Source: Moniliella sp. 'wahieum' (Eukaryota). Taken from it: 64,000 bases of DNA. Below the pieces are notes generated by a model that did not search any database, was not told where the DNA came from, and saw only the letters and a list, made by a program, of their open reading frames with translations. Below are positions 1 to 42,613 of this stretch, in pieces. Every line of letters starts with the position of its first letter. Position 1 is the first letter of the stretch. Both the position numbers and the translations under genes were made by a program. Location of the stretch: NCBI GenBank assembly GCA_003971905.1, contig RSEE01000075.1:1-64000 (forward strand), in the 5' to 3' direction.

Positions 1-22
1 CCTAACCCTAACCCTAACCCTA
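1..22 (+). repeat. Telomeric repeat (CCCTAA)n / (TTAGGG)n, chromosome end
   Basis: CCTAACCCTAACCCTAACCCTA at the very start of the window; C-rich strand on +, as expected for a left end; followed by a telomere-linked helicase. Confidence 0.92.
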
Positions 23-90: not shown

Positions 91-150
91 CGAAATCGTC
101 CGCTCTATGCAGCATATGCCCTCCGTTTCTCGATTGGACGCACCGTTGAC

Positions 151-216
151 AAGTTACACCCACCCATCCCTAACCCTACCCAACCCAACCCAACCCACCC
201 ACCCTCCGATGGCCTC
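151..216 (+). repeat. Direct repeat copy 1 (DR1) with degenerate telomeric core
   Basis: AAGTTACACCCACCCATCCCTAACCCTACCCAACCCAACCCAACCCACCCACCCTCCGATGGCCTC; hand alignment to 8286-8349 gives 5 mismatches and 2 single-base gaps. Confidence 0.9.
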
Positions 217-545: not shown

Positions 546-2014
546 CTACCCAGGTACTTTCTGCTCCTCTGGCGCCCAATTCAGGAGCGGAATCTTCCCA
601 TCCATTTCGGAACATATGTCTAGAGTTTGAATGATGGTATGCATTGCTATGTTCCTATACATGCTGGATGTTGACGACGGGGAGCAGAGGCTTGATGGGG
701 AGCGCAGGGTTGGTGGCGAGCACAGGCTTGGGGGTGGAGAGCGTGGGTGGGGGGCGCATGCTTGGAGATGATGAGCAGAGGTTGGTGGCGAGCACAAGCT
801 TGGGGATGACCAGCACAGGCTTGGTGCCGAGCACAGGCTTGAAGATGGGGAGCACAGGCTTGGGGATGAGAAGCACAGGCTTGGTGGCGAGCACAATTTT
901 GGCGATGACGAGCACAGGCTTGGAGACGATGAGCACAGACTTGGAGATGATGAGCACCGGCTTGGTGGCGAGCACACGCTTGGGGAGAGAGCGCAGGCTT
1001 GGACATGATGAGCACAAGGTTGATGGCGAGCGCAAGCTTGGACGCAACAGAAAGAGCACGACGTTGAACTGGCCCATGGGCTACTCGAGTTTGAGCATGG
1101 CCCCGACGAGCGTTGGGATGGAGGCAATGACGAGGGAGAACGGAAGGATGAGAGGAAGAACGCTGGTACAAGAGCGGGTCAGATTGAGGCAGGGTGACAT
1201 GGGATGGAATGGAGTGGGATGGGATGGGATGCGTACCGATGCGCTGAACGACGTTGCACATGGCCCAGACGGCGGTTGGGATGAGCATCTCAAGCAGGGT
1301 GACAGCAGGGGCAGCCAAGCGAGTGCACATCGGCCGGCAAAGGTTCGGAAGGGGACGGCATGGCAAGCTGCACGGTCTGCTGGGACGGGGGCGAGGCAAG
1401 TCGGTACATGGCCGAAACGAGCTTCCACATGGCCAAGCCAAGCGCCCAGACAGCCAACGCAAGCGCGGCAGCGGTGGCAGCAGGCGAGGCATGCACAACG
1501 CCATGCACCATCCCATGCTTCCGCTTGCCTGACCCGACGGTGGCGATGGGCGATTGAATGGAGGTGGTGGCCGAGTCAATGGCGGAGATGGCCTGGGCGG
1601 CCGTGGGAGGTAGGAGCGCGGCGCTGGGGCGGGTCGGGAAGCAGGTGGACGTGGGAAAGAGCGCCAGGGTGGTGGGCAGTACCTGCAGAGACCCACAAGC
1701 TGGACAGAAGACACACAAGCGAGAGGGTCAGTGGAGGGCCGGGGTGTGGCAGATGAGGCGCGGGAAGGCCCCGGAGAGCGGAAACGGAGGCTCAAAACGG
1801 GGTGAAACGAGGCAACAGACCTTGGGGGGCGGGCAAAGCCAGCCGGGTTGGGGGGGGGCGTGGTAAGAAACCAACCGCATCGGTCGCCAGGCCAGGTCAT
1901 ACACCCGCCCCTGCCTGAACCAGTTAAAATCTGAATTGCACCGATGCATGGGGTGGGCTGTGCGCCGTCACATTGGCTCGGCCGCCACCGATTAGACCTA
2001 CGCGCTACCACCAC
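546..2014 (-). CDS. Hypothetical spliced repeat-containing protein (boundaries and frame uncertain)
   Basis: Canonical minus-strand intron 1236->1163 (GTACGC...CTGAC...CAG) joins ORF 647..2014 in frame to ORF 546..1127 (SSSPSLC repeats). Confidence 0.4.
681..1041 (+). repeat. Subtelomeric minisatellite of 18/21-bp units with core GAGCACAGGCTTG
   Basis: Repeated GAGCACAGGCTTGGTGGC and GAGCACAGGCTTGGGGATGAT variants; all frames across it give periodic peptides. Confidence 0.9.
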
Positions 2015-2557
2015 CTACTCGTCCAGCGCCACACGCCCGTTCTCCATCATTGTGCGATGCCTTCCCCTGCCCCTGTGCGCGGCTGGGCTGAAAGAGGACG
2101 CCTGGGGCACGCTACGCCACCACTCGTGCTCTGACTCGTCCCATATGGGGGGGCACCGACGCTGTTTGTTCGAACCGTGCGCCGTCCCGACCCAACCTGA
2201 GCCTTTTGTAAGTGGTCTGACCTCAATTCTGGACCCATCCAAAAGCGTATCGTCTGTCCTGCAACGCCTGGTTCCCGTTCATGAACAAAGTGTATCCAAT
2301 TGCCCATCTGGCGACAATCGGGGCTGCTGCTGGCTCTGTCAACAGCGACAAGTAACGCTATGACGGGCATCGCTCCCCGAAATCTTCTGTTCCATCTCCC
2401 TCCCGCGTACTCTATAGATAAAACCCTCGGTTGTGTGTTTGTGGGTAGCCTAGCGACCGGGATGATTTGCATTGTGAACAGACTCGATCCTCCGTTTTGG
2501 AACTCTGACCGGCTCATCCCGCCATGTGTGCTTTCTGTTCAAAGCACTGTGATCTTC

Positions 2558-5500
2558 TCAGTCCGACGAGATGGAGATCGTGTCGGGGGACTGGTGTCTG
2601 AAGTCGCTCCAATCATCGTCACTGTTGAAGCGGCTGTCGGGCGGACTGGTGATGCTGTAGGTGTCACTTGTTTCCAGAGAATGAGAATGGGAACGGAATT
2701 GCTGCTCCATGAAGTACAGGAAGCCAGCAACGAAGAGCGAATGTCTGGCAACCCTCTGACTCCCAAAAACCAAGGGCTCCACCAACTCATTCCAAGGCCA
2801 GTGTGTACGGTCACAGCTTTGGGTTGAAGCTTGAGCTCACGGGGAAACGATACCTTTAGCGGCAGGAGGTGGACACGCACCCGCGCCCAAATCCCGATAA
2901 AGTCTTTCGGCGACAAAGTCGACAGCGCCGCCAGCACGAGTGGAATCAATCGTACCCACTTCGAGGGCGAGGCCATTGCCTGATCGCAGGCGGTTTTGGG
3001 GGCTGTACCTTCCGGTGCCCCTGCACCCCTGCAGACCTGAACCTTGCTCAAGTCCCCGTTCAACATGGGAACGCGCAAAGGCCAAAAGCAGCCATAACAA
3101 GTTCCATGTTTCGGGGCACGGAGATGGCTCCAAGCGATGCAGGCCGGACCTTCCAATAAGGTAATCCGGGGGCAATCCCCAATCGCGTGGTCTAACCAAT
3201 CCGTACCTCCCGAACCAAAGTCTCGCGCGAAACAGAGTGGACAGCATGTAGATTCGGTCGTTTCTTCCGGGCGCACGACCATTTCATACTGGGTAACCAG
3301 ACGACCAAGTTCGGAGGGAGTGACCTTGCACATTTGCTTTTGACCCCCGGGGATCGGCACACGTGTTGTTGACAGTGGCTCTTTGGTGCGCGAACCTCCT
3401 TGTACGTCCTCAGCATCCCGAAGGATCCTTGTCTGCCGCCCAACGCCCTTTTGCCCATCACGAGGCAAAAGGGGCAGTTTCGACTGGCCTGAAATGCCTA
3501 CCCCAGCGCGCCCGTTGCGAACCGGGGAAAGGGAAGCGCCTCCCGGCAAACGGGGACGGTTCTGTCGAACGGTTCTCGGTGGCTGCTTTTGCTGTTGCTG
3601 CTCGTGCGTTGTACGCCTGCGCTTCACTCCCTCGTCATGGCCCGAAGAAGAAGTGGTGGATGGGCGAGCGCGCTTCAAGCGTTCGTGCTCCTTCTGCTGC
3701 GGCCTTGGCTGCTGGTCGGGAGAGGGAACAACCGGAAGCGCAGAGGCCCTGATGAATGATGTGCTTGCTGAACTGGGGCGTGCGGTTGCCGCCCTCGCCG
3801 AGCTACTGTCCAGAGGCTGTGGGAGTGGGGTAGTAAAACTCGCGTCCCCAACAGAGCAGCACGGGCGTTGCAGTCTGCATGCAGTACACAACCTTGCGCC
3901 CTCCACATTCTCACACCGAATCGCCTTGCCGTAGAGGCAGATGTGCACAGCCTCCATCAGGCAAGGCGCGTTTTGCAACCAATGCGCCACAGACCCCACG
4001 TACGTCCGACGCTCATCCGTGCTAGGCCGCTGAGCCTGGTACGCTACCTGGCTTTGGGAGGCAAGAATGATCATCTGACCTTGCTGCCTTGGGCCTCGCG
4101 CGGCCCGTCCGGCTGCTTGGATCAGATCCAGACCGGTAAAGGGAATGCCGACCCAGATCACCTTGTCACAGTCCGGCACATCCAAGGACACGGCCAGGGA
4201 ACTGGTCCCTACCAGAACAACCTCGTCCCCGCGTACGAATTTGGCAAGGTCTTCTGCTCCCTCCTCTTCCTCGGCACCGTGGCTTTCGCCTTCGTCCAAC
4301 GTGTCCGATGCAGGCCGGGGGGGGAGGGGGTAGGTAGTGCTAAAAAGCAAAAAACAAAAGGCAAAGGGTGGGGGTTAGAAAACAACCTTAAAGTCAAAAA
4401 GGGGGTAACAGAAGACGTACGGGTACTCCCAAGCGCTTTGCAATGCTCCTCGTTTGCTGGCGCGAATTGGTGATCACGATCGCGCGGGAGGGGCGGGTGG
4501 ATGAGAAGGGCTGTTGAGCCATCCCTCCCGCGCCTTCAACCGCTGTGACAGGACCCTTACCAAAGTTGCTTCAACCCCGCCGTTGTCTGGCTTTTGGTAG
4601 ACATACTGCACCTCCGGCCGGGGGGAACATGGATTGTGATGCGCGAAGTGAAGCGTCCCTTCTGGCGACAACATCCGCTCCAGCTCTTCGACGATCCCTC
4701 GCGGCGCAGTGGCAGACAGACCCAGGAGGCGTGTATGAGGGAGAAGATTCGAAAGATAGCAAAGATCCTCAAACTCGCGCCGAAAGTTGCGTTGCAAGGG
4801 AATGAGATGCGCCTCCTCCAGCACAATGCGCTCCAGACGACCGCGTTGGGCCAGCGCACGCAGCATGTCCACCAAGGGCTTGTGGGCGAGTTGACTGACT
4901 GTTGCGAGCACCACACGAGTGCCTGGCCGGAGCTGAGGAACCTGTGGGTAGCCACCCGCCAAAGTGCCCTGCCAGCACTCATACAGGATATTGTGCCGGG
5001 CCAAGCGTTGCTCAAAGTCGGCAATCATACTGTGCAACGGCACCACAATCAATTGTACCATCTCAGCCTCAGCAGTCATGGTCGGGATGAGCCACATGGC
5101 CGTCTTGCCTGCGCCCGTCGGCATACACACCATCGACGCCGCCCCGAGGGGTTGGAATAAGATGTGGTGAAGACAAAGAAGTTGTGTATCGGTCAAACCG
5201 CAGGTGCCATACACCCTAACGCCCAACTCGCGTGCTTTGGCCAAACGCGTCCAGGGTGTTGCGGGAAGCAGGCGAGCAGGCGTGTCTGGGCGGAAGCAGG
5301 TTGGAAGCGCAGGAAGGGAAAGCTGTAGCACATTTTGTTGCCAGTCCCGGCTTACGTGCTGCGCAATGGGAAGCATGGCCAAGTCGAGGTACCCAATCTG
5401 GTGGGCGCTTCGACCGTAGGCCAAAGTAGTGGTGCTTGATGAATGTCCTGCCTGGGCCGCCTGACCATGCCATGTCACCGTGCGCTCCCAATCCATCTGT

Positions 5501-8457
5501 TGGTAGCCCGCTGACCCACCCTGCTCACCGCCACCACATCCACCCGAATTGGTCGTAGGGTCCGCGACCCCTGCACATCTCCCAGTAAGGTCCGCGTGCG
5601 TTGCCCTTTGGATAGGGCTGTACAATATTGGCGCCATGCCCTCAAAGTCAAAACCGGAGCCACAAGCTCGTTGGGCCAGTTGGCACGCAGAGCACGGTTG
5701 AGGTGGACCGTCGTCAGCTTGCCCGATTGCGCAGTGACAAACAGTTGGGGTTGGCAAGCTGGCACGGCAGCCGGGTTGCGTGCCAGCTTACGACGCAGAA
5801 TGTCGGTAGCAGGCCGGACGAGGAGCAGGTAGGCTTTGAGGACAAGTGCGGTCGTAGGATCAGGAAAGCGGGCCGAGCGGAGGGCGGCTTCGGGGCTGCT
5901 GTACATGGACGTCTTGCTCCGCCGTAACACGACAAAGAGGTCGTTCCCGGCAATGTAGATGCTGCGCTCGCAGGATAGCTCATTGACGCAACGGACATCA
6001 AGCGTCTCCACGCCGCGTGGAGAGACCCCAGAGCATACATGGATAGCCAAAGCCAGCTGAATGAGGAACGCCTCCTCGAGCTGGAGGACAGACCGGCCAA
6101 GTACCAGCTGGTCGTCTTCGTCCATTTTCTGATTCGACAATGTGCGCGAGAACAGAGAAAATGTCGTGACCTTGTACCAGCCGGCGGTTCTCAGGCTCGC
6201 TCGCAAAAGAGTAGTTCTCGGCCTGGTTGTTGAGCGTGTCTTTCAGATGGTGACCGTGAAGGGAATGCCTTCTGAAGAAATGCCCATACTCTTGCTCGCG
6301 CCCAACGGTGAACAACTTGAGAAATGCACTCTCCAGTCGGGCAAGGACCGTACTTGCAAAAACATACAGTTCGTGGTGCGGAACCACGATCCCATTCGGC
6401 CACGTGGTCTGGTGCGACTGGTAGAAAAACAAGCTGTCGCTCTTCAGCTCCGAGCGGGCCCGGCTGGCATACTGCAGCACGCGCGCCAATTGACCAGCGA
6501 TCCCAGGCGAGTCGACCACAACATAGTTGTTCTGATAGTCGATCAGTTCCGCCCTGGCACGGATCGGGTCCCGCAATTCGGGCTGCCTAAAGGAGCGCAA
6601 ATGAAGCGAGGCAAAGGCCGACAACCGCAAGCACCACATTAACCCAGCCATGAACGGAGACACATGTCTAGGCGCCCTGAAAAGCAAGCAAGGCTGGCCA
6701 TGGCGTGGCCCTTGGGCCGGTAGCATTTCCGGTCCTTCGTCTTTCCATTCCTCGTCCCCGTCGGCATCCGTCGCATCCTCTTCTCCGTTCAGCCGGTCAT
6801 CCAGGTCGGCATTGTCCTGCTCCTCCATAATAGTGCCGATACCTGAAAGGGATACAGGCTTGTGTTGTTCATCTTGCCCCGCCGCCAAGGGGTCTGTGGT
6901 AGGCCGATGCCAAATGCCAAGGCACTTGCTAAAGGCAAAGAGCCAGACCGGGCCAACATCCTCCAGGGCAGGCATCCAGGGTTGCTTCACTACCACATCC
7001 AGCCAAATCCCAATCGATCTAAAGGACAGGTCCTTCTCAAGGAATTCTGCAGCCTCCTTCGGATCCGTAGGGTAAGTTTGGGATACCCTACCTAAGTGAA
7101 GACGTTTCAGGAAACTCTCGAGCGGGTTCTGGGTGGTTTCAAACCCAGCCTGGCGCAATGCATTTGCCAAGGCTTGCTCATGGCTTGCCAAAACCCTTGT
7201 GGCCAGAGGGGCAAGAGGATGCTCTTCGGCTGTACCCTGCGATTTACGAACGGCGACCAGTAACATGGTAAAAAGAAGACAGTCTGCGAGATGGGACGTG
7301 TAATTTTTGAGTGTTGAACAACCGACATCCAACCCGTTCTTTCGTAACTTGGCATCTGGGCCAACGAGCCAGGGAGTGGGCAGGAAATGCTGTAGCTTTT
7401 TGGTACTTTCCAGCAAACCGATGGCCCACGATAGCAGTATCGATGCTGCGTGTCGACGCACCCTCTGCCAGCAGTGAAGGTCGCTCGCCTCAGCCAATTC
7501 CATCAAAGGAACACCTTGGAACAGCCGAGTAACGTGCCACATCCGGGGCCAAGAACCCATTAGGTGCTCTTCATCCACGACACGCGTCAAAGGATCAGCT
7601 CCTGGCATGTGTGGCTCCATAGTTCCCGGAGCGGCTTCTTCGACCTCAAACAAATACCTCAGAGGCCCTCGTCTGATCCGTCCAAGGTCGTTTGCATGCG
7701 GAAGGTCCTGCTCACCCACACGGGCCGGACGGGGGGCTGCTGGACGAGCGGGCGGAGTCTGGCCGGGACCCGGTGGAGCATCAACCTCTTTGGCGGTCAC
7801 CTCAGCGGATTCCGAAGCACCTGTACCCGCACCCCGACGCGCCCCGCGGCCGCTGCTTGTAGACTCCACCGTGCGAACGCCATTTTCAAAGGGTTCGAGA
7901 GCATTCTGTTCCTCATTGTCCTCCTGCTGGTTCCTTGTGGCCGCATCGTTCGTAGGACTCGCCAGCCCAACCGTCGTGGCGGGGTTAGAAAAACCCAGGC
8001 AACTACCATCGGCCCTAAGGATGGCACGCTTGATCCCGTATGCCACATTTTGCGTCGTCATGCGCACGCTGACGTATCGATGGCCGAAAGAACGTTGATG
8101 GTGTTCCTGATTCTCCCGGTAACCCAACACCCGGAAACACTTCCTGCACACAAGGTGCTTATCGCGGACAGGCACCCTATCCACAGGCTCCGTAAGAGGC
8201 AAAGGAAACATATCCTCCGAAGGTGTGCGTGGTTGCATGTTTTCGGGCATGGCACGCAACACGGAGCGGGCCTCTTTGGGTTCAAAAGTTACACCCACCA
8301 TCCCTAACCCTACCCACCCCGACCCACAACACCCACCTCCGATGGCCTCGACGATAGCTCGTGTACCACGTTGGCCCAGGCCGCGCGCCTCGCCGGGTTC
8401 ATCAAAGTCCCCAAGACATGGCAGGGACTCGTCGTTGCGGCCGAGCTGCTGGAGCAC
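2558..8457 (-). CDS. Telomere-linked RecQ-like SF2 helicase (TLH-type) with N-terminal Zn finger and tyrosine-recombinase-like domain; frameshifted in this assembly
   Basis: Joined from ORFs 5998..8457, 5475..6206, 4474..5757 and 2539..4350 plus intron 4420->4340 (GTACGT..CTAAC..TAG). Motifs: CRKC..HH..H; SGVSPRGVE; GHSSSTTTLAY; Walker A MPTGAGKT; LEEAH; LSAT; QAAGRAAR; RQC-like C..C..CTAC. Transcribed towards the telomere. Confidence 0.88.
8286..8349 (+). repeat. Direct repeat copy 2 (DR2) with interstitial telomeric core CCCTAACCCTA
   Basis: AAGTTACACCCACCATCCCTAACCCTACCCACCCCGACCCACAACACCCACCTCCGATGGCCTC, matching 151-216. Confidence 0.9.
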
Positions 8458-16041: not shown

Positions 16042-17963
16042 GGGAGAGGGAGAGGGAGAGGGAGAGGCAGGGTGGGCGGGCCTGCGGCGGGGGAGGGGGA
16101 GAAGAGAGAAGCCAGGGGAGGTGGGATCGGCAGTGGAGGTGGTGGTGGTGGGAATGGCGGTGGTGGTGGTGGTGGTGGTGGTAGCGGTGATGGTGGTGGG
16201 AGCGGTGCTGCGGGCAGAACACGGCCGCGTCGTGTGATGTCGGCTGGTTAGCCAGTGTTGGTTGGTTGGAATGCGCTGGGCTGCAACGCGGGGCTTACGT
16301 CAGCCATCGGGACAGCGCTGGCGGCGAGTGGCTGATAATAATCTTAGGAGGGGGGTAGGCAAAGTGGTGTACAACCACCACCACCACCACCAGCTGGCAC
16401 CCCAGACAGCCAGCCTCCCACTGAGCATTCTTCTTCGTTCTTCTTCGTCCCGCCGCCACAAAACACACCGCCAATTCAAGACAGATGAATCACAGCAAGC
16501 ATGTCATTACAGAGGGTGTGACTGCACCACCGATGTTTTTTTGCTCTTCGGTGTAGTTTCTTTCTCCACACCGTTCACCGCCCTCCTACTCTCCCGCCTC
16601 AGATGCTCAACCCGTGCATCCAACATCCAACACTCAGGGATCTTCGATGCGACCCCCCATCCTCACATGTCACAGGCCTCCCTGCTCGGTGCATCAAGGG
16701 ACGGCGACCGTCGCATCCGCTATTTACACCGGTGATTTTGTCCAAGCAGGCTTCATCCATGCTTTAGCCTGTGCAAGTAAGCAGGGACTGGGATTTGCAT
16801 CCGTGTTACCCGGAGGACTTGGTACTTATGTGCATCATAATCCCAGTAACCGTATTGGAGAGACCATGTATGAGATCTGAGATGCTCAACGCTTCACAGT
16901 TAACCCCGCCCGTCCAGCTGGGGTGCAAAAAGCGCCTGCGTGTTGGGCAAACCCCGGCTGCAGTTCCGGTTATGGCGAGGCACATTTTGCGGCTGCGGTT
17001 ATAATAATAACGGCTGTGGGTCTGCAACTCCAGGCGATGGCGCAGCGGTTCCTACGCCATTGACCCTCCGGCGTATAGGAGTTGTGCCCCCCCTTCCTCT
17101 GCTCCATCAGGGCCATGACCTCGTTATTCCCTCTCGTCCCCGCCCCCCAGAACAGGGGTAACCGCTACCCTGCCTCTTCGATTAGCCACCTACACTCCTG
17201 CTGTGTGGGGGGCAACACGGGTGGTCTCATCGATGGGTGAGTGAATTGCATACGTAGATACTAGTATCCCTTCGTACTCCCCTCCCTCCCATATATACTG
17301 AACGCGGTGCTACTTATATGAACACAGACCTTTGCGCTGGAGCTATCCGGGCCAGACCTGCACTCTGTCCCCTTGACGCCACACGACCTCTAATGTTGCG
17401 CTGTAGTAACTTGACCCAATGTGAGTGCAACATGAGAGGGATAGGCTCCTCCGCGCGCTGTGTTGGGATCTCAGATGCAGGATCATCGAGATCATCGAAT
17501 AATGTTTTTTTGCTCCGCATTCTTGTCCCGCGCGGGTGCTGGACCCTGGTATGGGCGTTGTTCGACAGCGCCGCCGCAGGCCATGCGCATTCCTTTATTG
17601 GAATTACGGTGTGCTGTTGTTATATATATAGCGCCCGTGTGTGTTCTTGTTCACCTCCGTCTTCGCTCTTGTCATCACCTCCTTCTCCTGGTTCCCCGCC
17701 AGCCCCCAGCCGTTTGCTTGTCCGCTATTTTTCCAGTTACGTTTCCTCGAGTCACTCTCGGTCCTCTCTGTGAGGCTTGGCCAAACAGATGAGAGACTAC
17801 TAGGGTTCTCCCCAGTATAATCCGGTTGGCTGACTGTGGGGTTGTTCTGTCTTCGCTGTGACTTGTATTCATATATAGCCACACCCCAAACACCGATTCG
17901 GTCTATTCCGCCTTATACTCCGTTTGAGATCGATCGCAAGCGCTGTTCTGCCTGTCTTGCACT

Positions 17964-18831
<868 letters not shown>

Positions 18832-19546
18832 AGAGTGTGACCCAACGCATTTCCCCCCTTCCACCACGGAACAGTACATATAGATTTTCACTCTTCTTTC
18901 TCTTCTTCTCACTCTGCTCCTGGATCGGGAACGGCAGCGCTCCCTGCGTGTGTCGCATGCCCTACACATGATATGATGTGAGGTCCCCAGCGAGATTCCC
19001 CTTCGCGGTTTTTGTTTGGGCCCTTTTTGGGCGTCCATGCATATGTTCTTTTCTCACCACAGTGTGTCTGTTCCTTCGCTTTCTTGGGTTGGGTACGAGA
19101 GACTATAACAGAGAGGGGAAATAGAGGGGGCAGGAGGGTCATCCACCGACTTTTTAGGAACCCAGGCCGTACCGCAACTCGGCCTCTTCAGCGCCCAGGA
19201 TGCAAACGATTCAAAACTGATCAATTCCCGGTCCATTCCACCCCTTCTATTCCCCCTCGTTTACCAGCGACCGTGCTAACCAATCGGCTGTTGGCGCGCC
19301 ACAGACGTGTACTCTGGGGCAGGCGGGCATGCTGGTTGTGGAAGCTGAACTGGGGGTCGGCGGTTGGAGGCAGCGGGGCCAGATAGAGTCGAAAGTGCAT
19401 CCAACCAGGAGACGGACAAGGGCGCAGAGCACAACACCCTGCAATGGAAATGGAAACGTTCGTCGTCGTCAACCGGATGCTGAAAGAGACGGCGCTGTTG
19501 GTGTTTGGGCGCTGAGGTGCCGGGTGAAAGCGCATGTTGGGGCTCG

Positions 19547-19667
19547 TGTGGGAGGCGAGCAAGGCAGGGGAAGAGATGGTGTGGATGCAATCAGGGGGAG
19601 GCAGCCAGCCGGCGCCACAGGACGGGTCAGTGGAACAGGGGCGGGACGGGGCCGCCTGCTCGCACAA
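19547..19667 (+). repeat. Dispersed intergenic repeat, copy A
   Basis: Colinear with 27870-27980; identical 20-mer GAGATGGTGTGGATGCAATC and shared ACGGGGCCGCCT..CGCACAA end. Confidence 0.85.
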
Positions 19668-21536: not shown

Positions 21537-24500
21537 ATGAGTCCCACGCCCTGGCTGCCCTCTGCCCCCACCGCCTCCCCGCCCTCGGCCGCCTCCCCAT
21601 CCGACCTGCAAGCACCGCCGCTGCCGCCCGGCCCAGCCGCCCGCTCGACCTCACGCTCAGTGCCAGCGCCCTCCACAAGCGCCGCCGCACCCACGCGTCG
21701 CTCAACATGACCGGCCTCGCCCCTGCCCCCGGCACATCCACCGCCCCCCATCCGCTCCTCCGTCCCGCAGCCGAAGCCAATCCGAATCCCATCCCGCGCA
21801 GCAGCAGCAGCAGCAGCAGCCCCCGCCACCCCCAGCAGTCTCTCCGCAACAAGCAACGACCCTCCCCAACACCAGTCGCGTCCCCCCACCTTCTTTTCGC
21901 CGCCACACCCGGATCCGCATCAGACCGATCCAACAACCTCCCGCACTCGTCCCGCACCCCTCGCCGACAAGGGCGCCGCTGCCAAGAACACCGATGTCTG
22001 GCCCGATGACGTTGAAGTTGCATTTTGGGAAGGTGAGTGGCGCTGCTTGATGGAGCTTCTCACACCAATCGCCAATTCTCTTTTTTTGTTCTGGGTGGCT
22101 GACCACGGAGATTATGCATCCTCTCCCTCTCTGCCGTGATCACAGCGCTTCGCTTTATCCCCAAGCTCGGGCGACGCAAAGTATTGGTTCATGGCAAGGC
22201 GTGTGGCCGCAACGAACTGATTGCGGACTACATCCATCGCAAGACGGGCAAACAGCGCTCGCGCAAGCAAGTGTCTAGCCACATTCAAGTCCTGAAAAAT
22301 GTCCGCAAGGACGATGCCGAGTTTCTTCACCTCATAGCCGAGCCACGTTGTGAAGACGACTTTTACGTGCCCGCTGGTGGGATGATGTACGCCCTTTTGC
22401 TCGCCAGCTCTGGCTACGGTGGCCTAAGTGGTCCCTATGGTGTGCCCGGATGGGAGATGGCGGCCGAAACGGTTGTCGAGGGCAACATCAATCGTCTTAC
22501 CGACCCTACCCTTACCGCTCCTCCCCCGGCGGACAACATGCCATCCGTGCTGCCATCCAGTTTTTCAATGTGGGCGCACTGCAGCGACAGTGAAGAGCGG
22601 CATGTGTACGTGACGATGGAGACTGGCACTGCGCCCTGTACCAGTGTAATTGACGGGAGCAAAGCTATCGACACGGTACATTTGGGCCAAGTACGATTCC
22701 CCCACTTGTTCCGCATGTTTGATCAAATTCCCTGCCCGTTTCTACACATTTATGCCCCACTTAGCGTTCCCCACGCCGACGTCTTTCTTCCCGACTTTGA
22801 CCAGTTTAGCACCCAGCTCACCCTCACCAGCTGCGATGCCCACGCCTCACCTCAGTCACCACCGTCTTCTCACACGGAAAACGCATCCTGTCCCTCATTG
22901 AGCCCCTGGATCCGCCCCGGCAAGTTGCGGCTGTCTCCCCACGACAACGGAGGACGTGACGACAAATGCAGCGCCTCGCTACTCGTATATGCACTACGCT
23001 CCCTTTGCCACGGACTTTTGGGCAGACTTGCTGAGTCGCAGTCACCCGGTCCACTTTCCCAAGACGAACGATTCTCCAACGTTTGGCAAGGAGCCGAGCG
23101 AACGCGCGGCGCTGGCCATGGCCGTCGCAGGCATCTCGCTCATCCAAGAATTTGTCGTGACCGACGAAACCATTCCTGCCCAGTCGTACAAGGGGGCGAA
23201 GGCGACGAAGAACTTCTGTCACCCGGACAACAAGTGGGCGAAGTGCACCTGGTTGTATCGTGGGACTTGGAGTGCGTGGAACCCACGTCCTCCTGCATCG
23301 TGCGCACCAGCCAAGCCGCGCATCTCGCTTCTCACCTCGGCCGCGGCGCGGCGTGCCAGCGAGCCGGACCGGTCCCGCCAGCCAACGGAGCAGATGACCA
23401 GCGCGTTGCCTCTCGGTCCGCGTCGGGTGACCTATCCGCACCCCACCGTCGTGCCCCCTCCTCTCTTTGCTCCTGCTTCTTCTGCAGGCGCAAGAACAGG
23501 CACAGCCGCCGCCGCGTCTCCGCGCTCTTCTTCGTCCAACACGCTGATGCTCAACTTGCCCATGTCCAACTTGCCCATGTCCAACTTGCCCAGTTTGCCC
23601 AGTTTGCCCAATTTGCCTAGTCTGCCCAGCCTGGCCACCTTGGACGGCCACACCACACTGCCAGCTTCGTCCAGTGCACCGGACCGCCTGCCTCTGCCTG
23701 CTGTCAACGTTACTGGTGACGTTGACGGCCTGGGCCAGGGGCCAAGACACCCGCCCACTGCTCATGGGCTCTCGGTACCGCAGCCGGGGCATGCGAACTT
23801 GGTTCCCCCCGCGTCGGATGCGGCGCTGCAGGGTCCGTCGCACCTCCATTTGCAAGCCATGCCCACGCTGCTGCGCAAGCGTACCTTGTCCAATGCGACG
23901 CGCGAGTACCACCGCCAAACCTACCCCGCCCGTCTGTCCATTCTGCCGCGTTCGATGGAGCCTATGGGCGCGGGGAAACGGATGGGGATGGGGATGGGAT
24001 GGGGACGGGTATGGATACGAGTATGGGCACGGGCACGGGCAAGGGGATCGGTGCTGGCATGGGATGGGGATGGACATGGACATGGGTACGACAAGTGTGG
24101 ACAAGGGTATGGCTCTTGGCACACCCCAATCGTCCGGCCTGAGTTGGCCTGGGTCAGCAGGCACGGGAACGGGGACGTACCCCGACAGCAGCAGTACCGA
24201 AGGAATCTGGTCCTTTCGTTCCGAGCCGGCGATTCCGTCGCCGCTCGATGCCAGTTTGCCCACCACGCCCATTCCCGTCCTGCACCCCGCGCGACGAGAC
24301 CAATCCGCCGCTACGTCTGTCGCGCGCCATGTCCGACTACCATCTCGGGCCGAACCACGGCTACCAAGGCTACCAGGGCCAGCAAGGCCACCACAGCCAC
24401 CAAACCCACCAAGCTCACCACTGCGCGTCTTCTTCGCCCTTCTCCGCCACGCCGTTGGGGTCGCCATCGATGCTGGACGGGCGACCGCCTCCTGCGGAGC

Positions 24501-27459: not shown

Positions 27460-27871
27460 TCAGACCGGTCTGCAGTGGGGGCGAACTATCCAGCACCTCA
27501 TTCTTGACTCTTGCCCTTGGACATTCTGTACGCCCGTTGGGCCGCCATCGACCACATCCCAAAGGTAGCTGGCCGACGCTGCGGGCGCGAGCCTGTACCG
27601 GGGAACCATTCCTTTCGATACGAGGCAGTTGGAGTCGGGGAGTGGGGGTAACTCGGACAAAATGGACATGTCGTGGAGGCGTGCCGGAGTGCGACCGCCG
27701 GGAAAGGCGCCGGGGGTGGGGGCGGGTGTCATAGGCGAGCCCAGCTCCGGCGACGGGGGTGGGAGGCCGCCAGAGCGGCTGGGATGGGTTTCGGTTTTAC
27801 GGGACATACCAAGGCCCGTGGCGTCAAGATAACTGTGGTGGGGTGTGGAAGAAGCCTCTCTCGTCATCATG
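27460..27871 (-). CDS. Small hypothetical S/T-P-rich protein
   Basis: ATG directly after repeat copy B; LPPPSPELGSPMTPAPTPGAFPG looks protein-like; no family recognised. Confidence 0.3.
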
Positions 27872-27980
27872 TGGTAGGCGGGCAAGGCAAGGGAGGAGAT
27901 GGTGTGGATGCAATCCGGGCAAGACAGCCCGGAGCAACAGGAAGGGAGGGACAGAGGCGGAACGGGGCCGCCTCGCACAA
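27870..27980 (+). repeat. Dispersed intergenic repeat, copy B
   Basis: Same-orientation homolog of 19547-19667. Confidence 0.85.
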
Positions 27981-34199: not shown

Positions 34200-36490
34200 T
34201 CAAAGCACAACCAAATCCCAATCCCACTTCCAATCCGACGCTGCCGCACTGGCACGGCTATAGAGCATCGAAGCCTGCGCGGTCCCCTTGTCTCCCCCCA
34301 CCGGGCCGCGAGCGATCCATACCGGACCGTACGGGCCCCAGGTGTTGGCGAAGACAAGCGTACACGTTACACTGGTACATAAGGGTACACGGTAGGAGGG
34401 TACGAGGGTACGAGGGTACGAGGGTACGAGGGTATGGATATCGAGGTGGATCGGGAAGCAGGGAGGGAGATACGAAGGAACGAAACAAGGGCACGGTGGA
34501 CACGACTGCGGTAGTGCTGTTGTGTGCAAAGAACGGTGTGTGCGAAGACGGGGCCGGGCGGGGGGGGGGGGTGTGTATGACCACGTTGCGGTGGATGGCC
34601 AACGCAAGCTTCGCCAGGTGAGAGCCAAGAGCATGAGGTAGCCAAGAGCGGGGCAACAGGAAGAAGGAGGCTCAGTAGGCACCGGACTCACTTGAGGCCT
34701 GCCCCACAAATCAAGTCCAACCACAACCACAAGTACGTACGTCCACTTGAGCTTACCGCTTACCCATACAGCGAATCGGCGCATTGGGCCAAGGTGAGCG
34801 AAACGTAGCCGAGCAAGCACCGCACGGGGTCGGGAGGCACAGGTCGAGAGGTAGGATAGAGCATCAGGTCGGCCGGGGCATGGACGGACTGGGACCGAGC
34901 GCACCGCACCACACGCGACACGCTCCCCCCCGCCCCACGCATCGACCTCGTGCCCATCCCACTTGTCCCACCCCTCCCTCGACCGGAACCGATACGGGAC
35001 CCTGTACCGGACCCGGGACCGGAAACCGAAGCCGAAGCTGAGCCGGAGCCTGATCCCGTCGAGCCCAGGGAACTAACACTGGGCCGCTCACCACCTCGCG
35101 AGTGTGGAGCCACGTGCGCGCTCCCCTCCGTCCGACCGCGCATCACGCCCACTTCCAACACTTGGCCCGCGGGACCGTACCCGCCAAGAGCACCAACTGC
35201 GTCACGTCCCATGTGCGACGCACGCCCTTAGCTGCCGCAGCTAGTACCCCGGTCCCGCCTTCGGCTCGCCAAGCTCGTCCCCTCCGCCGCCAGGCGCGGC
35301 GCAAACCATAGGGTGCCGGGTCCGGGGTGCGTGCCAGCGAAGTGCGGCTGTCCTCGGTCCGCGCAAGGGGGGCGGGGGTGGTCACGGTTGAGGGGGAGGG
35401 TGGAGAGCCAGGTATAGGGGGAGGTACGGTGGTCAAGATGGTGGGTGGGACGGCAACGGGGGAGGAGAGGTGGTAGAACGAAGGTAGTGCTGCAACGCTT
35501 GGACCACCAGTGGGTCCCACGCTAAGGCACACTCGCTCGGTTCGTGCAGCGGGAGGAACATGGGTTGGTCTGGGACGTGCGGCGGCGGGGCGGAGCGGGC
35601 TGTGCCACCGGGCCGGACACGGTGGAACAGGTACACGAGGCAGGCCGAATGGTCTCGTTCCTGTCGTTGGTCGTGGTGGTCGCGCTCGTTGTATGGTCGT
35701 GGTGTCGGTCGTGGTGCGAGTGGTGCAAGTCGTGTGAGTCGTGTGAGTCTCGTTCGGCACGGTGGGAGGGGGAGGAGAGACCAGCGAAGTGGACCAAGAC
35801 CAGTGCAGCCTCCCACCACACCGACCTGGCAGGCGGCGTACCGCTGCACACAGCTCAGTCCAGCGCAGCAGCAGGTGCGCCAGCGCTTGCACGCCCAAGG
35901 CAATTTTGGTTTCGCATGGCGTTGGTGCTGGATCAGGCGAGGGATAGGCAGCGCCTGCGCCTTGGTCTGGGCCTTGGTCTGGGCCGTGGTCTGGGCCGTG
36001 GTCTTGGCCTTGGACTTGGACTTGGTCTTGGACTTGGTCTTTGGCTGCGGCGTCGGTGTCGGCTTGGGTAGTGGTCCCCACGCCAAAGCGGTCGCCTAGG
36101 GAGGACAAGGACCGAGATGCGGTGGAGGAGCTCGCGTCGGACAAGGGCTCGGCGGTCGGAGTGGGCGACGGCGGGAAGCGGTGGTTTGCTCTGTTTTGGT
36201 AAGGGGGAGTGGGAGTGGGAGTGGGAGTGGGAGTGGGAGTGGGAGTGGGAGTGGGAGTGGAAATGAGAATGGGAATCCGAATGAGAGTCAGAATGGAGAG
36301 AGACGGGCTGGGGCGGAAGGAGGCGTTTTGGGATGGGCGCTGGGGGCTGGGGCTGGGTGCTGAGGGTGTGGTGGGCGGCGCGGGGTGGGCGAATGGGGTG
36401 GAGGAGGGGGGCGGTGGATGGGCTGGTGGTATGGGGGGAGGTGTATTCGTCGGCGCTGATGGAAGGCCGGGCAGAGCGGAAACCGACCAT
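34200..36490 (-). CDS. Hypothetical low-complexity protein (multi-exon)
   Basis: ATG at 36490 (MVGFRSARPS..); protein-like segments in ORFs 35933..36490, 35143..36144 and 34760..35212; GTAAGC and GTGAGT donors near 34755 and 34692; 3' end uncertain. Confidence 0.4.
34396..34434 (+). repeat. Octamer tandem repeat (GAGGGTAC)x~5
   Basis: Read directly from the sequence. Confidence 0.9.
36205..36260 (+). repeat. Microsatellite (GGGAGT)n
   Basis: Read directly; encodes HSHS on the minus strand. Confidence 0.9.
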
Positions 36491-36611
36491 GGTGATGGGG
36501 ATGGGGGTGGGGATGGCGATGGCGATGGCGATGGTGATGGCGATGGCGATGGCGATGGCGATGGCGATGGGGGTGGGGGTGGTGATGGCGATGGGGTTGG
36601 CGATGGCGATG
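36488..36611 (+). repeat. Microsatellite (GGCGAT/GGTGAT)n
   Basis: Read directly; a similar tract lies at 42640-42698. Confidence 0.85.
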
Positions 36612-37257
36612 TGAATGAAAATGGGAATGGCCGTGGCGGAGGCAGACGAGCAGACAGGACGAGAAAGGGCTGAGACTCGAGGGCGGATGGCGAGTACGCT
36701 CCTCCACCGACGTCATCGCTCCTCGTGTGGATTCCAACATTTCAACACGCGGGGGGATGAGAGGGGGTTGGCATGCGACATGTGATGTGGCGTGTGATAG
36801 GGGTGGACATGGGATGTGGCGTGTGCTAGGCCATGTGATACCGCAAGCGCGGGGTAGCATCATTTAATGCCCGGTCGATGGCACGCACAAGCCCCGCCGC
36901 TGCCGTTCTCTCTCTCCCCTGCAGCGCCCCTGCAGCGCCCACGCAGCGGCTGTGGACGCCGGCGGGAGGCACTGCTTGTAGTGCAGGACGCTGCCGCACC
37001 CGCCCTGTGTGCGCGCGGCGTTATGCATGCCGGTGGGCCCCCGTGCAGCGCTGGTTTGCCAACGCACAAGCAAACACAGCATACACACGACGCATGTACG
37101 CCCCCCTGCGTGGTGGGTGCTGCTTGCTGCGGCTGGCGTTCTTTTGTGCGCTTCTCCCACCCCCACCACCTCCTCCCCTCTCCTCCCCCCCTCTCCTCCC
37201 CTCTCACACCACCTTCTCTTGCCGTCGCGCCAACTCCTAGTCCGTCTGTTGCCCAGC

Positions 37258-40200
37258 ATGCCCCCCCCACGCCCCCTTCTCCCGGCCCACCCCCCCCCCC
37301 ATCCCCCGTCCTCCCCCACCAGCTACGACGAGTGGATCGCCGCCCCCGCGCCGTCGCCCGCCCACGACACCTACTACCCCCCGCCTCCCCCGCCCGCCCC
37401 GCCAACACCTTCCGCACCCTCCTCCCCGCCCACCACAGTCCCCTCACCCCCTCCTCCCACGTCACCCTCCCCACCGCCAGCACCGACCACCTGCTCTCCT
37501 CCCCCCACCTGCCCCTCCCCGCCGCCCCTTCCCCTCGCCCCCCCCCCTTTGCCAGCTCCGACTCCTACTACTCCCACTACGCCCCACCCCATGACCGTGC
37601 CTTCCCGACCGCCAAGCGCCCCTGCCCCTGCCTCTGTCCGAAGACGACTTGCCCCGCAGTGTTACCCCCCACAGACCTCGTCCTTCCCACAGCCCATGTT
37701 CTGCCCCCCCCTTGGACGAAAAGAATGATCCTTCCGTAGCGGCCCGCATCGAGACACTCACAGCATGTACCCGTTCCATTGGCTTGACCCTGGCATGGCG
37801 TCAGTTGTCCGTCCAAGGCACTGGCGTCGGTGCCAAATACGCTCCCGATATGCTCTCCTCTATTCTCGCGCCCCTGTCCTGGGCCACCAAGCCCTTCTCC
37901 CGCGCCACCTCCCCTTCTGCCAACAACGTCAACGTTCTCTTTCCTTCCTCGGGTCTCGTTCGTCCGGGCGAATCGCTCCTGGTGCTGGGCCGTCCCGAGA
38001 GCGGATGCTCCATCTTCCTCAAGACCTTGGCCAGCTACCTCGACGACGACTATGTAGTAAAAGGTGACTTGCGCTATTACCACCTCCATCCCAGCCACAT
38101 TCGCAGTCGTTTCGTACGTTGTTGCATCCATTCTTCTTTTTGTTCCTGGCGACTGGGTTCAATCGCTTTGCTGCCTCACAACTGCTACTGACACCTACCC
38201 CCCCCACCGCACCCGTGCACGCGCGCATGTATATGCGTGTTTCTCTTTCTCTCTTTTTTCTCCCAGCGAGGCGAGGTTGCCTACCTGGGCGAGGACGACA
38301 TTCACTTCCCCACCCTCACCGTGGAGCAGACGATGGACTTTGTCAATGCCGCGCGCCGCCCGGGCAGGACGCGCGTCCCGATTTGGGCACGTCAACGACC
38401 GAGGACAAGTCACGAAAAACGTACGCAGCCACCCTGCGCCATACCCTGGCCGTCGCACTTGGCCTAGAGCACAGATACACCACCAAGGTCGGCGACGCTG
38501 TCATCCGTGGCGTGTCAGGAGGGGAGAAGAAGCGGGTCAGTCTGTATGAAGGCATGGCGCTCATGTCGCGCATTCTTCTGCTGGACAACCCCACGCGTGG
38601 CTTGGACAGTAACCGCGCCACCGAACCACACAGGTCCTCCATACCGTCGCACGCGCCTCCAATGCAGTCCTGGTAGCAGCCATGTACCAAGCTGGCGAGC
38701 CCATCTTTGCTCAGTTTGACCGTGTCTGCCTCCTCAACGGTGGACGGGTGGTCTACTTTGGCCCGACGATTGCGCCGTGGCCTACTTTGACAGTCTTGGC
38801 TTTCAACAACTCCCGCACCAAAGCTCGGCCGACTTTTTGGTCAGCGTTACCGACCCGTCCGCGTGCAACGTCCAGCGGGCTTTGAAGGAGTTGTGCCGGC
38901 CACGGCGGCGGCAATGGAGGAACACTGGAACAATAGTCACCTTGCTACTCTTACACGTACCGAAACGCACGCCTTTCTTGATTCGGTCCAACCTGTTCGC
39001 AAGGACGACGACCAGAGGGGCAGCGAGTTATTGGCTGCCGCTCTCAACACCCGTAAGGCCAAGCATGCCCCGCGCAACTCACCCTTTATCACCACCTGGG
39101 CCCAACAGATCCGTATCTGTTTCCATCGCCGCTACCTGATGCAAATTGGCGATCCGGCCACCCATGTAACCATCATGATCGCCATGATTGCTCAGGGCCT
39201 CATCTTTGGCAGTGTCCTTTACCAACTTCCTCATAACACTCACGGTCTTTTTTCTCGTGCTAGCTCCATGTTCTTCATGTACGTTCCAACCTCTCCCTCC
39301 CCCACCGTTTCGCTATAATTGCACTAGGAAAAAAAATACAAAGCCCATCGCACCCCCTGTGCACCTACCCACACCACCCTTTCTCTTTCTCTCTTGCGCC
39401 AAAAAGATATACTAGGAGAGAGAGAGTGTGTGTGGGTGGGTGGGTGCGTTCAGTGACGATTTATTTTGACGTATGCGCCTCATCTCTTCCTCCCCGCAGG
39501 CTCCTCTTTACTTCCTTTATGGCTCACACTGAGATTGTGATCAGCTATGCCCAGCGTCCGATTGTCATTCGTCACAAAAAGTTTGGCATGGCGCGTCCGA
39601 GTGCCGACTCGTTGGCCAACTCGATCTTGGAAATTTTGTTTCGGTTCCCTCCCCTGGCTGTGTTTATGGTGACCATGTACTTTCTCTGTGGCCTGAGTGC
39701 GACCGCGAGCCAATTCTTCATCGCGCTTGGCATTACCTTTCTCCTTACCGAGCTGTGCGTGGGCATTGACCGTATGCTGGCAGCCATGTTCCGGGACATG
39801 TCCCACGCAGCCATGGTGGCCGGCTTGCTCGTGATTGATTTTGCCTTGTACGCCGGCTTTGCGATTCCTCAACCGTTCTTTGTCAAGTGGTGGGACTGGC
39901 TGCGCTGGTGGAACCCGATGAACATGGCATTGAAATGCTCACCACCAACGAATTTCGTACCCTGACTGCCACTTGCTCTCAAATGGTCCCGGCAGGTGGA
40001 TCCTACGACACGGTTCCGGTCGCCTACCGGTCCTGCTCGGCTCCGGGTGTTCCGCCAGGGACAGATAAGGTGTCTGGATCCGAGTATCTCAAGCTCGCTT
40101 ATGGTTGTACGTCCTCCTCATCCTTATTCTTTCCTTTTACATTCCGTTTTCGTCCTTCTTCTCACCCCTGATGTTGACCGTCTGCGTTTCCTATCTGTCT

Positions 40201-42613
40201 TCTCAGTCGACTGGGACCACCGGTGGCGACTGACGGGTGCCATGCTGGGGATTTGGCTCGGATCCGTGGTGGCGTATGCGGTAGCCTGCGAGTTCCAGAA
40301 AGATGCCAGCACACGGATGGCTGCCCTTCTGTATTCGCGTCGTGCGACCAAGCTCTTGTCCCCGCTGCAGGTGATGGAGGAGCGAGCCAAGTCAGCTCGG
40401 TCGCTGGCGCACGATGCGCCTGTTGGCCCCATAGTGACGCCAAGCCACAGTGATCCCTTTCCTGGCCTTGCAGCTGCGCAGCGGGATAAAGACCAGCGCG
40501 TGTTTACCTTCCAAAATGTATGCTACGATGTGATGGTCAAGGGCCAGACGCGCCGCTTGCTGTCCGACGTAACGGGCATTGTGCCTCCGGGCCAATTGAC
40601 GGCGATCATGGGCCCCTCGGGCAGCGGCAAGACAACCTTGATGAATGTACTGGCGCAACGAACCAAGGGCCTAGGCGTCGTGTCCGGTACTTTTCTCTGT
40701 GACGGTCTCCCGCTTCCGTTGGGCTTTCAACACGAGACGGGATACTGCGAGCAAACCGACACGCATCTCTCTACGACCACTGTGCGTGAGGCGTTGCACT
40801 TCTCTGCGCTGCTGCGGCAGGCGACCGGGTCAAAGAAAGACAAGTTGGCGTGGTGCGAGCAGGTGATCGACTTGCTCGATATGGGCGCCTGGGCCGATGC
40901 GTGGTAGGCACGGCAGGCGACTGGCAAGCGCTCAGCTTGGAACAACGGAAACGACTGACGATTGCCGTCGAGGTGGCAGCCAGGCCGAGTCTGCTGTGTT
41001 TCTGGACGAACCGACGAGTGGGATGGACACCTTATCGGCCCGATCGATTGTGCATTCGCTCAAACGTCTTGCCCTTGCCGGCCAGTCCATCTCTGCACCA
41101 TCCACCAGCCTAGCGGCGACCTCCTCGCCCAGTTCGATCGTCTTCTCCTCCTTGACGAGGAAAGGTGGTGTTCAATGGTCCCTTGCACACCCCGACCCGC
41201 TCGTGCGGCGCGGTGCTGGACCACTTTCAGGTCCATGCCCATCGTCTCTGTGCCGGTGACAACCCAGCAGAGTTTATGATGGACTGCATTGCCGCCCCGC
41301 CGCCCGAAGCGACCGATTGGGCCAGCGTTTATTCGCACAGCTCCATGGCGGCCCACACCAAAGCCGCCATTGCATCTGCCATCCAAGCCGGTCGTACCGC
41401 CTCGTCTCTTCGCTCCTCCTCTGATGCGCACTTGCACGCACACGAGCACGCACAAGAGTACGGCGCTCATCTGCCCACCCAGCTGGCCCAGTTGTTCCGC
41501 CGCACCTGGATCCACTTTTGGCGCAGCCCCAATTACTTGGTGTCCAAGTTTGCGCTCAACTTGATTGCCGGTCTCTTTGTCGGCTCGTCGTTTTGGCGCC
41601 AGGGCACGCAAAGTTCCCCGTCCAACCTGGCCATTCGCGTGTTTGCTCACTTTGTTGGTACGTCCCAGCCCATTTTTTTCTTTCCTTCCTTCTCCCTCCT
41701 CTTTCCACTGCGCTGTTAATAGGGACGGATGAGCACAACCGACTAACCTGAAGAACGGGCGCGGGATGCATTCTCAGCCAACGTGCTGGCTGTCCCGCTG
41801 GCGCAGCATATGCTGCCCATGTACGTCGAGATGCGGAGCGTGTTTGAAACGCGCGAGCGGCAAGCGAAGATTTACTCGTGGTATGCGTTCCAGGCCACGT
41901 TTTTGGCGGTGGAGGTGCCGTGGGACTGGGTGTGTGGGCTGGCGTATTGGGTTCCGTGGGAGATGATGGTCGGCAACACGGGTCGCACTGGTGGTCGCTG
42001 CTGTGGTTTGTGCTGCTGTACTGCACCTTCTGGCCAGCGCTGGGCGTCTGGATCCAAAACATGGCGCCGGACGCCTTGCTGGGCGGCATCCTCTTCGAGT
42101 CGTTCTACTCGTTCTGCCTCATGTTCTCCGGCATCGTCACGCCGCCGTCGCTGATGGTTGCGTTTTGGCACTGGATGAACAAGCCACGCCGCTGCGGTAC
42201 TACATGGAAGGCCAGGCGGGCAACGCGATGCAGGGGGAGCGCGTGCGCTGCTCGGCCGTCGACCTGGTCCCGATCCAGCCGCCACCAGGATGACGTGTGC
42301 AAGCTACTTGGCCGACTTTAGTCCGACCTGGGACGACGCCCAGCGCGCCCTGGCCCAGCACACCCTCCCGCCGGGGCAAGGGTACTGGGTGCCGCTCGAC
42401 CCCGCCACCAGCGCGGGCGCGTGCGGATGGTGTCCGCTGAGCCATGCCGACGCCTACCTCGCCACGCTCGGCATGGACGCAAGTAAGCGCACGCGCGAGT
42501 GGATCTTTGCGTTGTACGTCGTGGCCAACCTGCTGTTCTGCTTTGCCTCGTTTTATGTGTTCCGCATCGCGTCCCCGCGCGCGCTGCTGGCGCGGTGGCG
42601 CCGCAAGCGCTAG
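37258..42613 (+). CDS. Full-size PDR/ABCG multidrug ABC transporter (NBD-TMD)x2
   Basis: NBD1 [39 protein letters not shown]2 [48 protein letters not shown]; two transmembrane domains; several introns. Confidence 0.95.

Follow-up and report, generated by a model that had tools for sequence, protein, structure and literature searches.

What is the conserved domain that lies directly upstream of the helicase in fungal telomere-linked helicase (TLH) genes? The window analysed here, a stretch of 64,000 nucleotides from Moniliella sp. 'wahieum' (contig RSEE01000075.1, positions 1 to 64,000), raises this question at its telomeric end, where a first-pass annotation made from the letters alone had read a tyrosine-recombinase catalytic domain in the segment preceding the helicase of a TLH gene. 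Our analysis suggests that the TLH domain is probably a very divergent member of the tyrosine-recombinase/type IB topoisomerase ('DNA breaking-rejoining') fold that keeps the arginine, lysine, arginine, histidine and tyrosine of that fold. Such a recombinase-like assignment offers a testable clue to the function of the long-mysterious TLH genes.

Five catalytic-type residues and their conservation

The five residues lie on the minus strand, and reading each codon confirmed the positions at which the annotation had placed them:

6015-6017, minus strand: box I Arg (codon CGC), in SPRGVE, context HVCSGVSPRGVETLDVR
5913-5915, minus strand: beta-hairpin Lys (codon AAG), in RRSKT
5631-5633, minus strand: second Arg (codon CGC), in LRAWRQY
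5416..5445, minus strand: box II-like GHSSSTTTLAY, with the His at 5443-5445 (CAT, in QAGHSSS) and the presumed nucleophile Tyr at 5416-5418 (TAC, in TTLAYG)

As proposed, the two arginines and the lysine share one minus-strand frame while the histidine and tyrosine share another, and a frame change near 5606 is needed to join them; tblastn with the homologue P0001, introduced below, switches frame between 5607 and 5487.

Homologues were collected by an exhaustive phmmer search of the window's 255-amino-acid frame against 1.84 billion cluster representatives (E ≤ 1e-3). The search returned 33 proteins, the best of which, P0001 (E 3.7e-29, 46% identity), is an intact homologue of 1373 amino acids with a DEAD helicase downstream of the domain. 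The phmmer matches cover only the in-frame part of the 255-amino-acid open reading frame (ORF), the best one spanning query residues 50-214. Word-indexed searches returned no match for this ORF against longer proteins, P0004 only when the family alignment was used, and P0001 itself only when the P0001 domain region was used. We built a MAFFT alignment from the domain regions of the 33 phmmer matches, in which each window piece was included as a fragment of its own. The homologues share only ~16-28% identity with the P0001 fragment.

At this level of divergence the residues in question are near-invariant, in line with the conservation that the tyrosine-recombinase reading predicts. Counting for each column the sequences that reach it (P0008 and P0019 are gapped at the second Arg, the His and the Tyr, P0002 at the His and Tyr, and P0020 at the Tyr), the glycine before box I and the arginine of G..PRGxE are present in 33/33, and the glutamate of the same motif in 32/33, with a single Asp exception. 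The lysine is likewise found in all 33 sequences. The second arginine, in the context (W/Y/F)R(Q/H), is kept in 30 of 31 (His in P0012), the histidine of QxGH in 29 of 30 (Thr in P0029), and the tyrosine in 29 of 29. The His-to-Tyr distance is 9 in 29/29, so that the H-x8-Y spacing claimed for the window holds across the family, in register with H333 and Y342 of lambda Int. From the box I Arg to the Lys there are 33-36 residues, and from the Lys to the second Arg 83-118. The order R, K, R, H/W, Y of tyrosine recombinases is therefore found conserved, with all five residues present in the window, and, judging from the aligned sequences, this pattern exceeds chance.

In the homologues the domain also shares one polypeptide with an upstream zinc-finger region and a downstream RecQ-like helicase. 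Pfam matches to DEAD and/or Helicase_C were obtained in 8/33 homologues (7 of these 8 also match ResIII), always downstream of the recombinase-like domain, and the OrsD zinc finger was matched in 4/33. The domain occurs as well in P0016, P0023, P0028 and 21 homologues devoid of any Pfam domain, in which a helicase went undetected. In P0023 the OrsD zinc finger follows the recombinase-like domain rather than preceding it. Many of the helicase-less homologues may be fragments, and other domain architectures are also possible.

Predicted fold and profile comparisons

We predicted the structure of the domain with AlphaFold2, template-free, on alignments of 33 sequences. The model of P0001 residues 701-1080 reached a predicted local distance difference test score (pLDDT) of 82.0 and a predicted template-modelling score (pTM) of 0.86, and that of P0025, a protein of 286 amino acids that is essentially the domain alone, 79.6 and 0.80. 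The modelled order starts with a long helix, the arginine opening the next short helix, and three strands with the lysine right after strand 2; it continues with helices, the second arginine within a helix, the histidine, the tyrosine ending a short helix, and a last helix. This predicted order is the layout of solved tyrosine-recombinase catalytic domains.

Structure searches with Foldseek gave a similar picture. For the P0025 model, the first 27 listed rows from the PDB (ranks 1-41) consist entirely of tyrosine recombinases and TelK, among them Cre, XerH, archaeal Xer, XerA and the integrases of S. aureus, Tn1549, SSV and phage Brujita. The best row has an E of 4.8e-3 and a probability of 0.98 (top rows 0.96-0.98), and the first unrelated row among those listed stands at rank 42 with a probability of 0.03. 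In BFVD, 39 of the top 50 rows are named, and 35 of these are integrases or tyrosine recombinases, the best with E 3e-3 and probability 1.00. The longer P0001 model matched the PDB more weakly than P0025 did (E ≥ 0.26), with topoisomerase IB or tyrosine recombinases accounting for 14 of the 19 rows listed to rank 20 (human and Leishmania topoisomerase I, integrases, XerA, Cre, Flp and XerD). Its three best rows are human topoisomerase I (E 0.26-0.29, probability 0.33-0.54), a protein matched by this model only (E 0.26-0.7); in the P0025 search, TelK stood at E 0.27, and two unnamed entries labelled 'DNA Topoisomerase' stood at E 0.64-0.71.

Profile comparisons with hhalign gave weak statistics. 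The family profile aligned with lambda Int alone at P 0.25, with the Arg, His and Tyr in register, and with nine lambda-Int-type phage integrases, untrimmed, at P 0.027 over 156 columns. When the alignments were trimmed to the catalytic domains (all 33 sequences versus the nine integrases), P was 0.01 with a score of 22.9 over 140 columns, and the box I Arg, second Arg, His and Tyr fell in register, with the Lys a few positions off. This score lies above those of 100/100 10-column and 99/100 20-column block shuffles of the integrase alignment, and the reversed alignment scored 16.1. In the ESM Atlas the best named clusters are Phage_integrase, NDC10_II and Integrase_2, with scores of 0.82-0.84, neighbours that we take as a lead only.

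A number of results pull the other way. In both models pLDDT falls below 50 around the tyrosine. No Foldseek match in the PDB or BFVD reached E ≤ 1e-3, TM-scores were 0.25-0.47, and root-mean-square deviations were mostly 10-22 Å. Pfam recovered no recombinase family in the window's four ORFs (E ≤ 1) or in the 33 homologues (E ≤ 0.01), and relaxing the threshold to E ≤ 10 for 16 family members yielded only six unrelated single matches. Among these 16 members, at that same threshold, neither DUF3504 (Crypton-derived) nor DUF3435 (Starship captain) nor any Pfam topoisomerase model was matched. PHROGs and NCBIfam (E ≤ 1) gave no relevant match, and neither did PDB sequences searched with phmmer and with the profile (E ≤ 10). 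The hhalign probabilities are at most 4%; against XerC, XerD, FimB, FimE and Cre, P was 0.13 over 27 columns that cover box I only, and the trimmed set gave P 0.057, the second Arg being misaligned. The interval from the second Arg to the His, 27-71 residues, is longer than in Cre or lambda Int. The first histidine of HxxR, which the annotation had noted as replaced in the window, is replaced family-wide: it is His in only 2/31 sequences and Arg in the window, a position that also varies among accepted members of the superfamily. Finally, the window gene as assembled contains at least three frame changes.

The annotation's interpretation is partly supported. For the predicted fold, the nearest structural neighbours are almost only recombinases, but at E ≥ 3e-3 and TM-scores below 0.5. 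Since the five best-conserved polar residues are of the catalytic types, in canonical order, structural elements and spacing, and since two structure libraries point the same way, membership in the superfamily is likely. Taking residues and models together, we judge it likely that the domain belongs to the tyrosine-recombinase/type IB topoisomerase superfamily and that its putative active site would still work. While the recombinase-like identity is likely, catalysis and mobility are put forward as hypotheses. The claim that the protein is able to cut and rejoin DNA is, as originally worded, not supported; we infer from the conserved residues that the domain could do so.

The telomere-adjacent gene and its flanking repeat

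At the window's start a single long minus-strand gene, in several frame pieces, is oriented toward the CCCTAA telomere:

1..21, plus strand: terminal telomere repeats (CCCTAA)n, read directly at the window start
145..216, plus strand: distal copy of a 72-nucleotide imperfect direct repeat with a telomere-like core (CCCTAACCCTACCCAACCC...), found by blastn
679..1042, plus strand: minisatellite array with periods of 18/21/39/60/81 nucleotides (Tandem Repeats Finder), between the gene's 3' end and the telomere
2539..4374, minus strand: open frame with the helicase C-terminal lobe and a Cys-rich tail (Pfam Helicase_C, E 5.8e-8)
4340..4420, minus strand: probable intron of 81 nucleotides, GTACGT...CTAAC...TAG, in the helicase region (from the sequence and stops in all frames)
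4474..5610, minus strand: end of the recombinase-like domain (His, Tyr and the next conserved S..W helix) and helicase N-terminal lobe (Pfam DEAD; tblastn)
5601..6125, minus strand: most of the recombinase-like catalytic domain, with both Arg and the Lys (phmmer; tblastn of P0001 817-985, 45% identity)
6127..8283, minus strand: N-terminal region of the gene (tblastn of P0001 106-778 against 8283-6187, 26% identity)
8280..8349, plus strand: proximal copy of the 72-nucleotide direct repeat, at the gene's 5' edge (blastn)

The gene is telomere-proximal, its 3'-most open frame ending at 2539 with the CCCTAA repeats at 1-21, and tblastn with P0001 detected no further TLH copy and no homology elsewhere in the window. 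Its N-terminal region carries a conserved D..YSF..P.N motif immediately before the recombinase-like domain and a C2H2-like motif, C-x2-C-x12-H-x5-H at ~8148-8080, that aligns with a similar motif in P0001; Pfam gave no zinc-finger match in the ORF holding this motif, and no family at E ≤ 1 in the 849- and 255-amino-acid frames. In the 4474..5610 frame, which shares 40% identity with P0001 1013-1339 (tblastn, 5487-4519), the helicase N-terminal lobe has a Walker A motif GAGKT and matches Pfam DEAD at E 1.7e-12. Together with the Helicase_C match, this identifies the core of a RecQ-like superfamily 2 (SF2) helicase.

Doubt as to whether the 5475..6206 and 4474..5757 frames belong together is settled by comparison with intact P0001, which tblastn places on the window as three colinear pieces (8283-6187, 6095-5607 in another frame, and 5487-4519). 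Since they are colinear with an intact homologue, the pieces derive from one polypeptide. Accordingly, the frame switches once in the interval 6187-6095 and returns to the first frame in the interval 5607-5487. An additional change, near 4500-4519, was read from the frame translations against the P0001 C-terminal sequence and not from tblastn, whose P0001 piece simply ends at 4519. Within the helicase region 4320-4520 the frame is also disturbed around the stretch 4420-4340, which from its sequence is probably an intron, and there is a mismatch just after it, at a C run.

The first two switches both sit at short single-base runs, which fit assembly error or decay alike. We considered introns that would restore the frame, a GT..AG stretch of 49 nucleotides at 6177-6129 and another of 53 nucleotides at 5623-5571, and rejected both, since each would delete a segment that aligns with conserved helices of the family. 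As these are the sole GT..AG candidates, the switches are taken as true frame changes in the assembly. The window copy as assembled is a pseudogene, unless the frame changes are assembly errors. The zinc finger-recombinase-helicase fusion described in the annotation is therefore found in homologues, and the window pieces do derive from one such polypeptide, but here the gene is split over several frames, so that the fusion protein cannot be made from this copy unless the assembly is in error. A decayed copy would be ordinary, given that full-length TLH copies were reported for only 4/11 in M. oryzae in the accessible portion of PMC1635262.

The two copies of the 72-nucleotide repeat (87.5% identity over 72 nucleotides, E 2e-17, blastn) bracket the whole TLH gene, lie 8134 nucleotides apart and share unique edges. 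Beyond this repeat, blastn found no homology between the flanks 1-2600 and 8200-64000. Integration of a circular element of the Crypton type would leave short direct repeats, and the 72-nucleotide repeat may mark the recombination site at which a circular unit inserted; telomere healing or ectopic exchange could just as well have left it as a scar.

The rest of the window holds ordinary fungal genes. ORFs with Pfam matches to a TEA/ATTS DNA-binding domain, a PDR-type ABC transporter and a sugar transporter (22103-23620, 39966-40907 and 52682-53782, respectively) are ordinary fungal subtelomeric gene content. Long G-rich repeats with a 12-nucleotide period (GGTGAT/GGGAGT types) at 16108-16219, 36190-36671 and 42589-42763 are probably low-complexity coding repeats. 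There is also an isolated direct repeat of 63 nucleotides (86% identity) at 19544-19606 and 27867-27929, 8.3 kb apart.

Possible roles and comparison with known systems

In intact relatives the recombinase-like domain would act as part of a fusion with the upstream zinc-finger region and the downstream RecQ-like SF2 helicase. Its tyrosine would attack a DNA phosphate and form a covalent 3'-phosphotyrosine link, after which the strand would be rejoined, and the helicase may unwind the substrate or drive its branch migration in telomeric or subtelomeric regions. Tyrosine attack, the 3'-phosphotyrosine link and religation are the established chemistry of the superfamily. If the active site works, the choice for the multiplication of TLH genes at chromosome ends lies between self-mobilisation and a role in end repair.

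Self-mobilisation would make TLH a transposase that moves a unit of ~8.1 kb between ends by site-specific recombination at telomere-like sequence, assisted by the helicase, a possible but rather unlikely role. The direct repeat with a telomere-like core that brackets the gene and the conservation of all catalytic-type residues would fit it, and the helicase-less proteins together with the reversed OrsD order of P0023 have the pattern of a shuffling mobile module. In several fungi, TLH genes also occur in multiple copies and only at chromosome ends, according to the accessible portions of PMC1635262 and 10.1101/2022.03.07.483234. Yet only a single gene copy and a single repeat pair are seen in the window, the repeat has no evident inverted binding arms, and telomere healing or ectopic recombination can produce short telomere-like tracts without a recombinase. 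Moreover, the failure of DUF3504 and DUF3435 to match 16 members (E ≤ 10) speaks against a Crypton or Starship enzyme, and the literature explains the spread of copies among ends by homologous recombination. The annotation's proposal that TLH is the enzyme of a mobile element thus goes further than the circumstantial evidence of the repeat allows.

We consider it quite unlikely that TLH genes across fungi, instead of being housekeeping telomere helicases, are the enzyme genes of an unrecognised class of eukaryotic mobile elements that insert at telomere-like sequence and left the repeats at 145-216 and 8280-8349. If they were, the class would extend, by published alignments, to fission yeast and choanoflagellate genes, and the spread of TLH over chromosome ends would reflect active transposition and not passive recombination.

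The end-repair alternative, also unlikely, gives the domain a catalytic, topoisomerase- or resolvase-like role alongside the helicase in telomere maintenance: it would resolve or relax recombination intermediates in telomerase-independent end repair, without the gene being moved. An Arg-Lys-Arg-His-Tyr set without the HxxR histidine, which only 2/31 family members have, is the type IB topoisomerase pattern, and RecQ helicases usually work with a topoisomerase (the RecQ-Top3 pairing). The three best rows of the P0001 model being human topoisomerase I points in the same direction, although topoisomerase matches are weak, the domain-only P0025 model prefers Cre and XerH, and no Pfam topoisomerase family was matched at E ≤ 10. 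Published observations fall on both sides: in the accessible portion of PMC1635262, S. pombe is reported to express its TLH genes in telomere crisis, while M. oryzae TLH regions are reported to be dispensable for telomere propagation.

A recombinase fold that serves as a non-catalytic DNA-binding module is very unlikely in our view. Domesticated recombinase folds exist, Ndc10 domain II being an example, and an NDC10_II cluster is near in the ESM Atlas (score 0.84, a lead only); strong divergence from all recombinase hidden Markov models (HMMs), the lost HxxR histidine and the low modelling confidence around the tyrosine would all suit such a module. A module of this kind would nevertheless have no reason to keep the tyrosine in 29/29, both arginines, the lysine, the histidine and a fixed H-x8-Y spacing at ~16-28% identity. 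That the resemblance is spurious, an unrelated helical domain with coincident motifs and generic helix-strand packing, is highly improbable: despite the lack of a significant profile match in any library, Foldseek E values never ≤ 1e-3 with TM-scores < 0.5 and hhalign P values of 0.01-0.13, the leading matches in two independent structure libraries are nearly all tyrosine recombinases, the five polar residues best conserved in the family correspond to the five catalytic types in canonical order and on canonical secondary-structure elements, and the block-shuffle control was beaten in 199/200 trials.

Under the preferred reading, a divergent recombinase-like domain, the closest parallels are the tyrosine recombinases of the Cre/Xer/lambda Int kind. 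The TLH domain shares with them the R, K, R, H, Y order, an RxxE box I, a lysine after strand 2 of a three-strand sheet and the predicted topology; with lambda Int it also shares an equal H-x8-Y spacing, aligned without gaps. Unlike them, it matches no HMM, lacks the HxxR histidine in 29/31 sequences, has an insertion that separates the second Arg from the His by 27-71 residues, and forms part of a helicase fusion in which no core-binding domain was identified. If correct, a recombinase-helicase fusion would join the short list of eukaryotic enzymes of the tyrosine-recombinase superfamily.

Cryptons and Starship captains are the fungal elements in which a tyrosine recombinase is the key enzyme. 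The family differs from both in that 16 of its members leave DUF3504 and DUF3435 unmatched; to our knowledge, no Crypton or Starship has been reported to carry a RecQ-like helicase fusion or to be linked to telomeres. Type IB topoisomerases and TelK are members of this superfamily as well, with a shared Arg-Lys-Arg-His-Tyr chemistry. TelK appears in the PDB searches of both the P0001 and P0025 models, but the matches to topoisomerase IB and TelK are weak (E 0.26-1.7, probability ≤ 0.54, with no Pfam match). In the layout of the locus, a subtelomeric helicase gene with telomere-like flanks, the window parallels the Y' elements of S. cerevisiae, which can be bounded by telomere-like tracts. The accessible part of PMC1635262 describes Y' elements as helicase-encoding subtelomeric units.

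The closest known counterparts of the window gene are the fungal TLH genes themselves, which likewise adjoin telomere repeats; the C2H2-like motif near the N-terminus of the window gene and its conserved block of ~250 residues directly upstream of a RecQ-like helicase appear to have equivalents there. Fungal TLH ends also resemble the window in having tandem repeats between gene and telomere and telomere-like sequence upstream. At M. oryzae TLH ends, in the portion of PMC1635262 available, there are helicase-associated repeats, which the window minisatellite at 679-1042 recalls, and upstream repeats with telomere-like units; many of the M. oryzae TLH copies described are broken by stops and frameshifts, like the window copy. 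By position, length and architecture the window block corresponds to the published 'TLH domain', and it is not new as a conserved block. In their accessible parts, 10.1101/2024.02.27.582403 and 10.1101/2022.03.07.483234 credit Rehmeyer et al. 2009 with this domain, which they regard as specific to TLH and to which they assign no function. Neither 'recombinase' nor 'integrase' occurs in the main text, as available, of 10.1101/2024.02.27.582403, and the literature searched, which left subscription papers (Rehmeyer et al. 2009) and preprint supplements outside its scope, contained no link between TLH and tyrosine recombinases. Relative to the published descriptions of TLH, the present analysis gives this domain a likely fold assignment and a putative active site.

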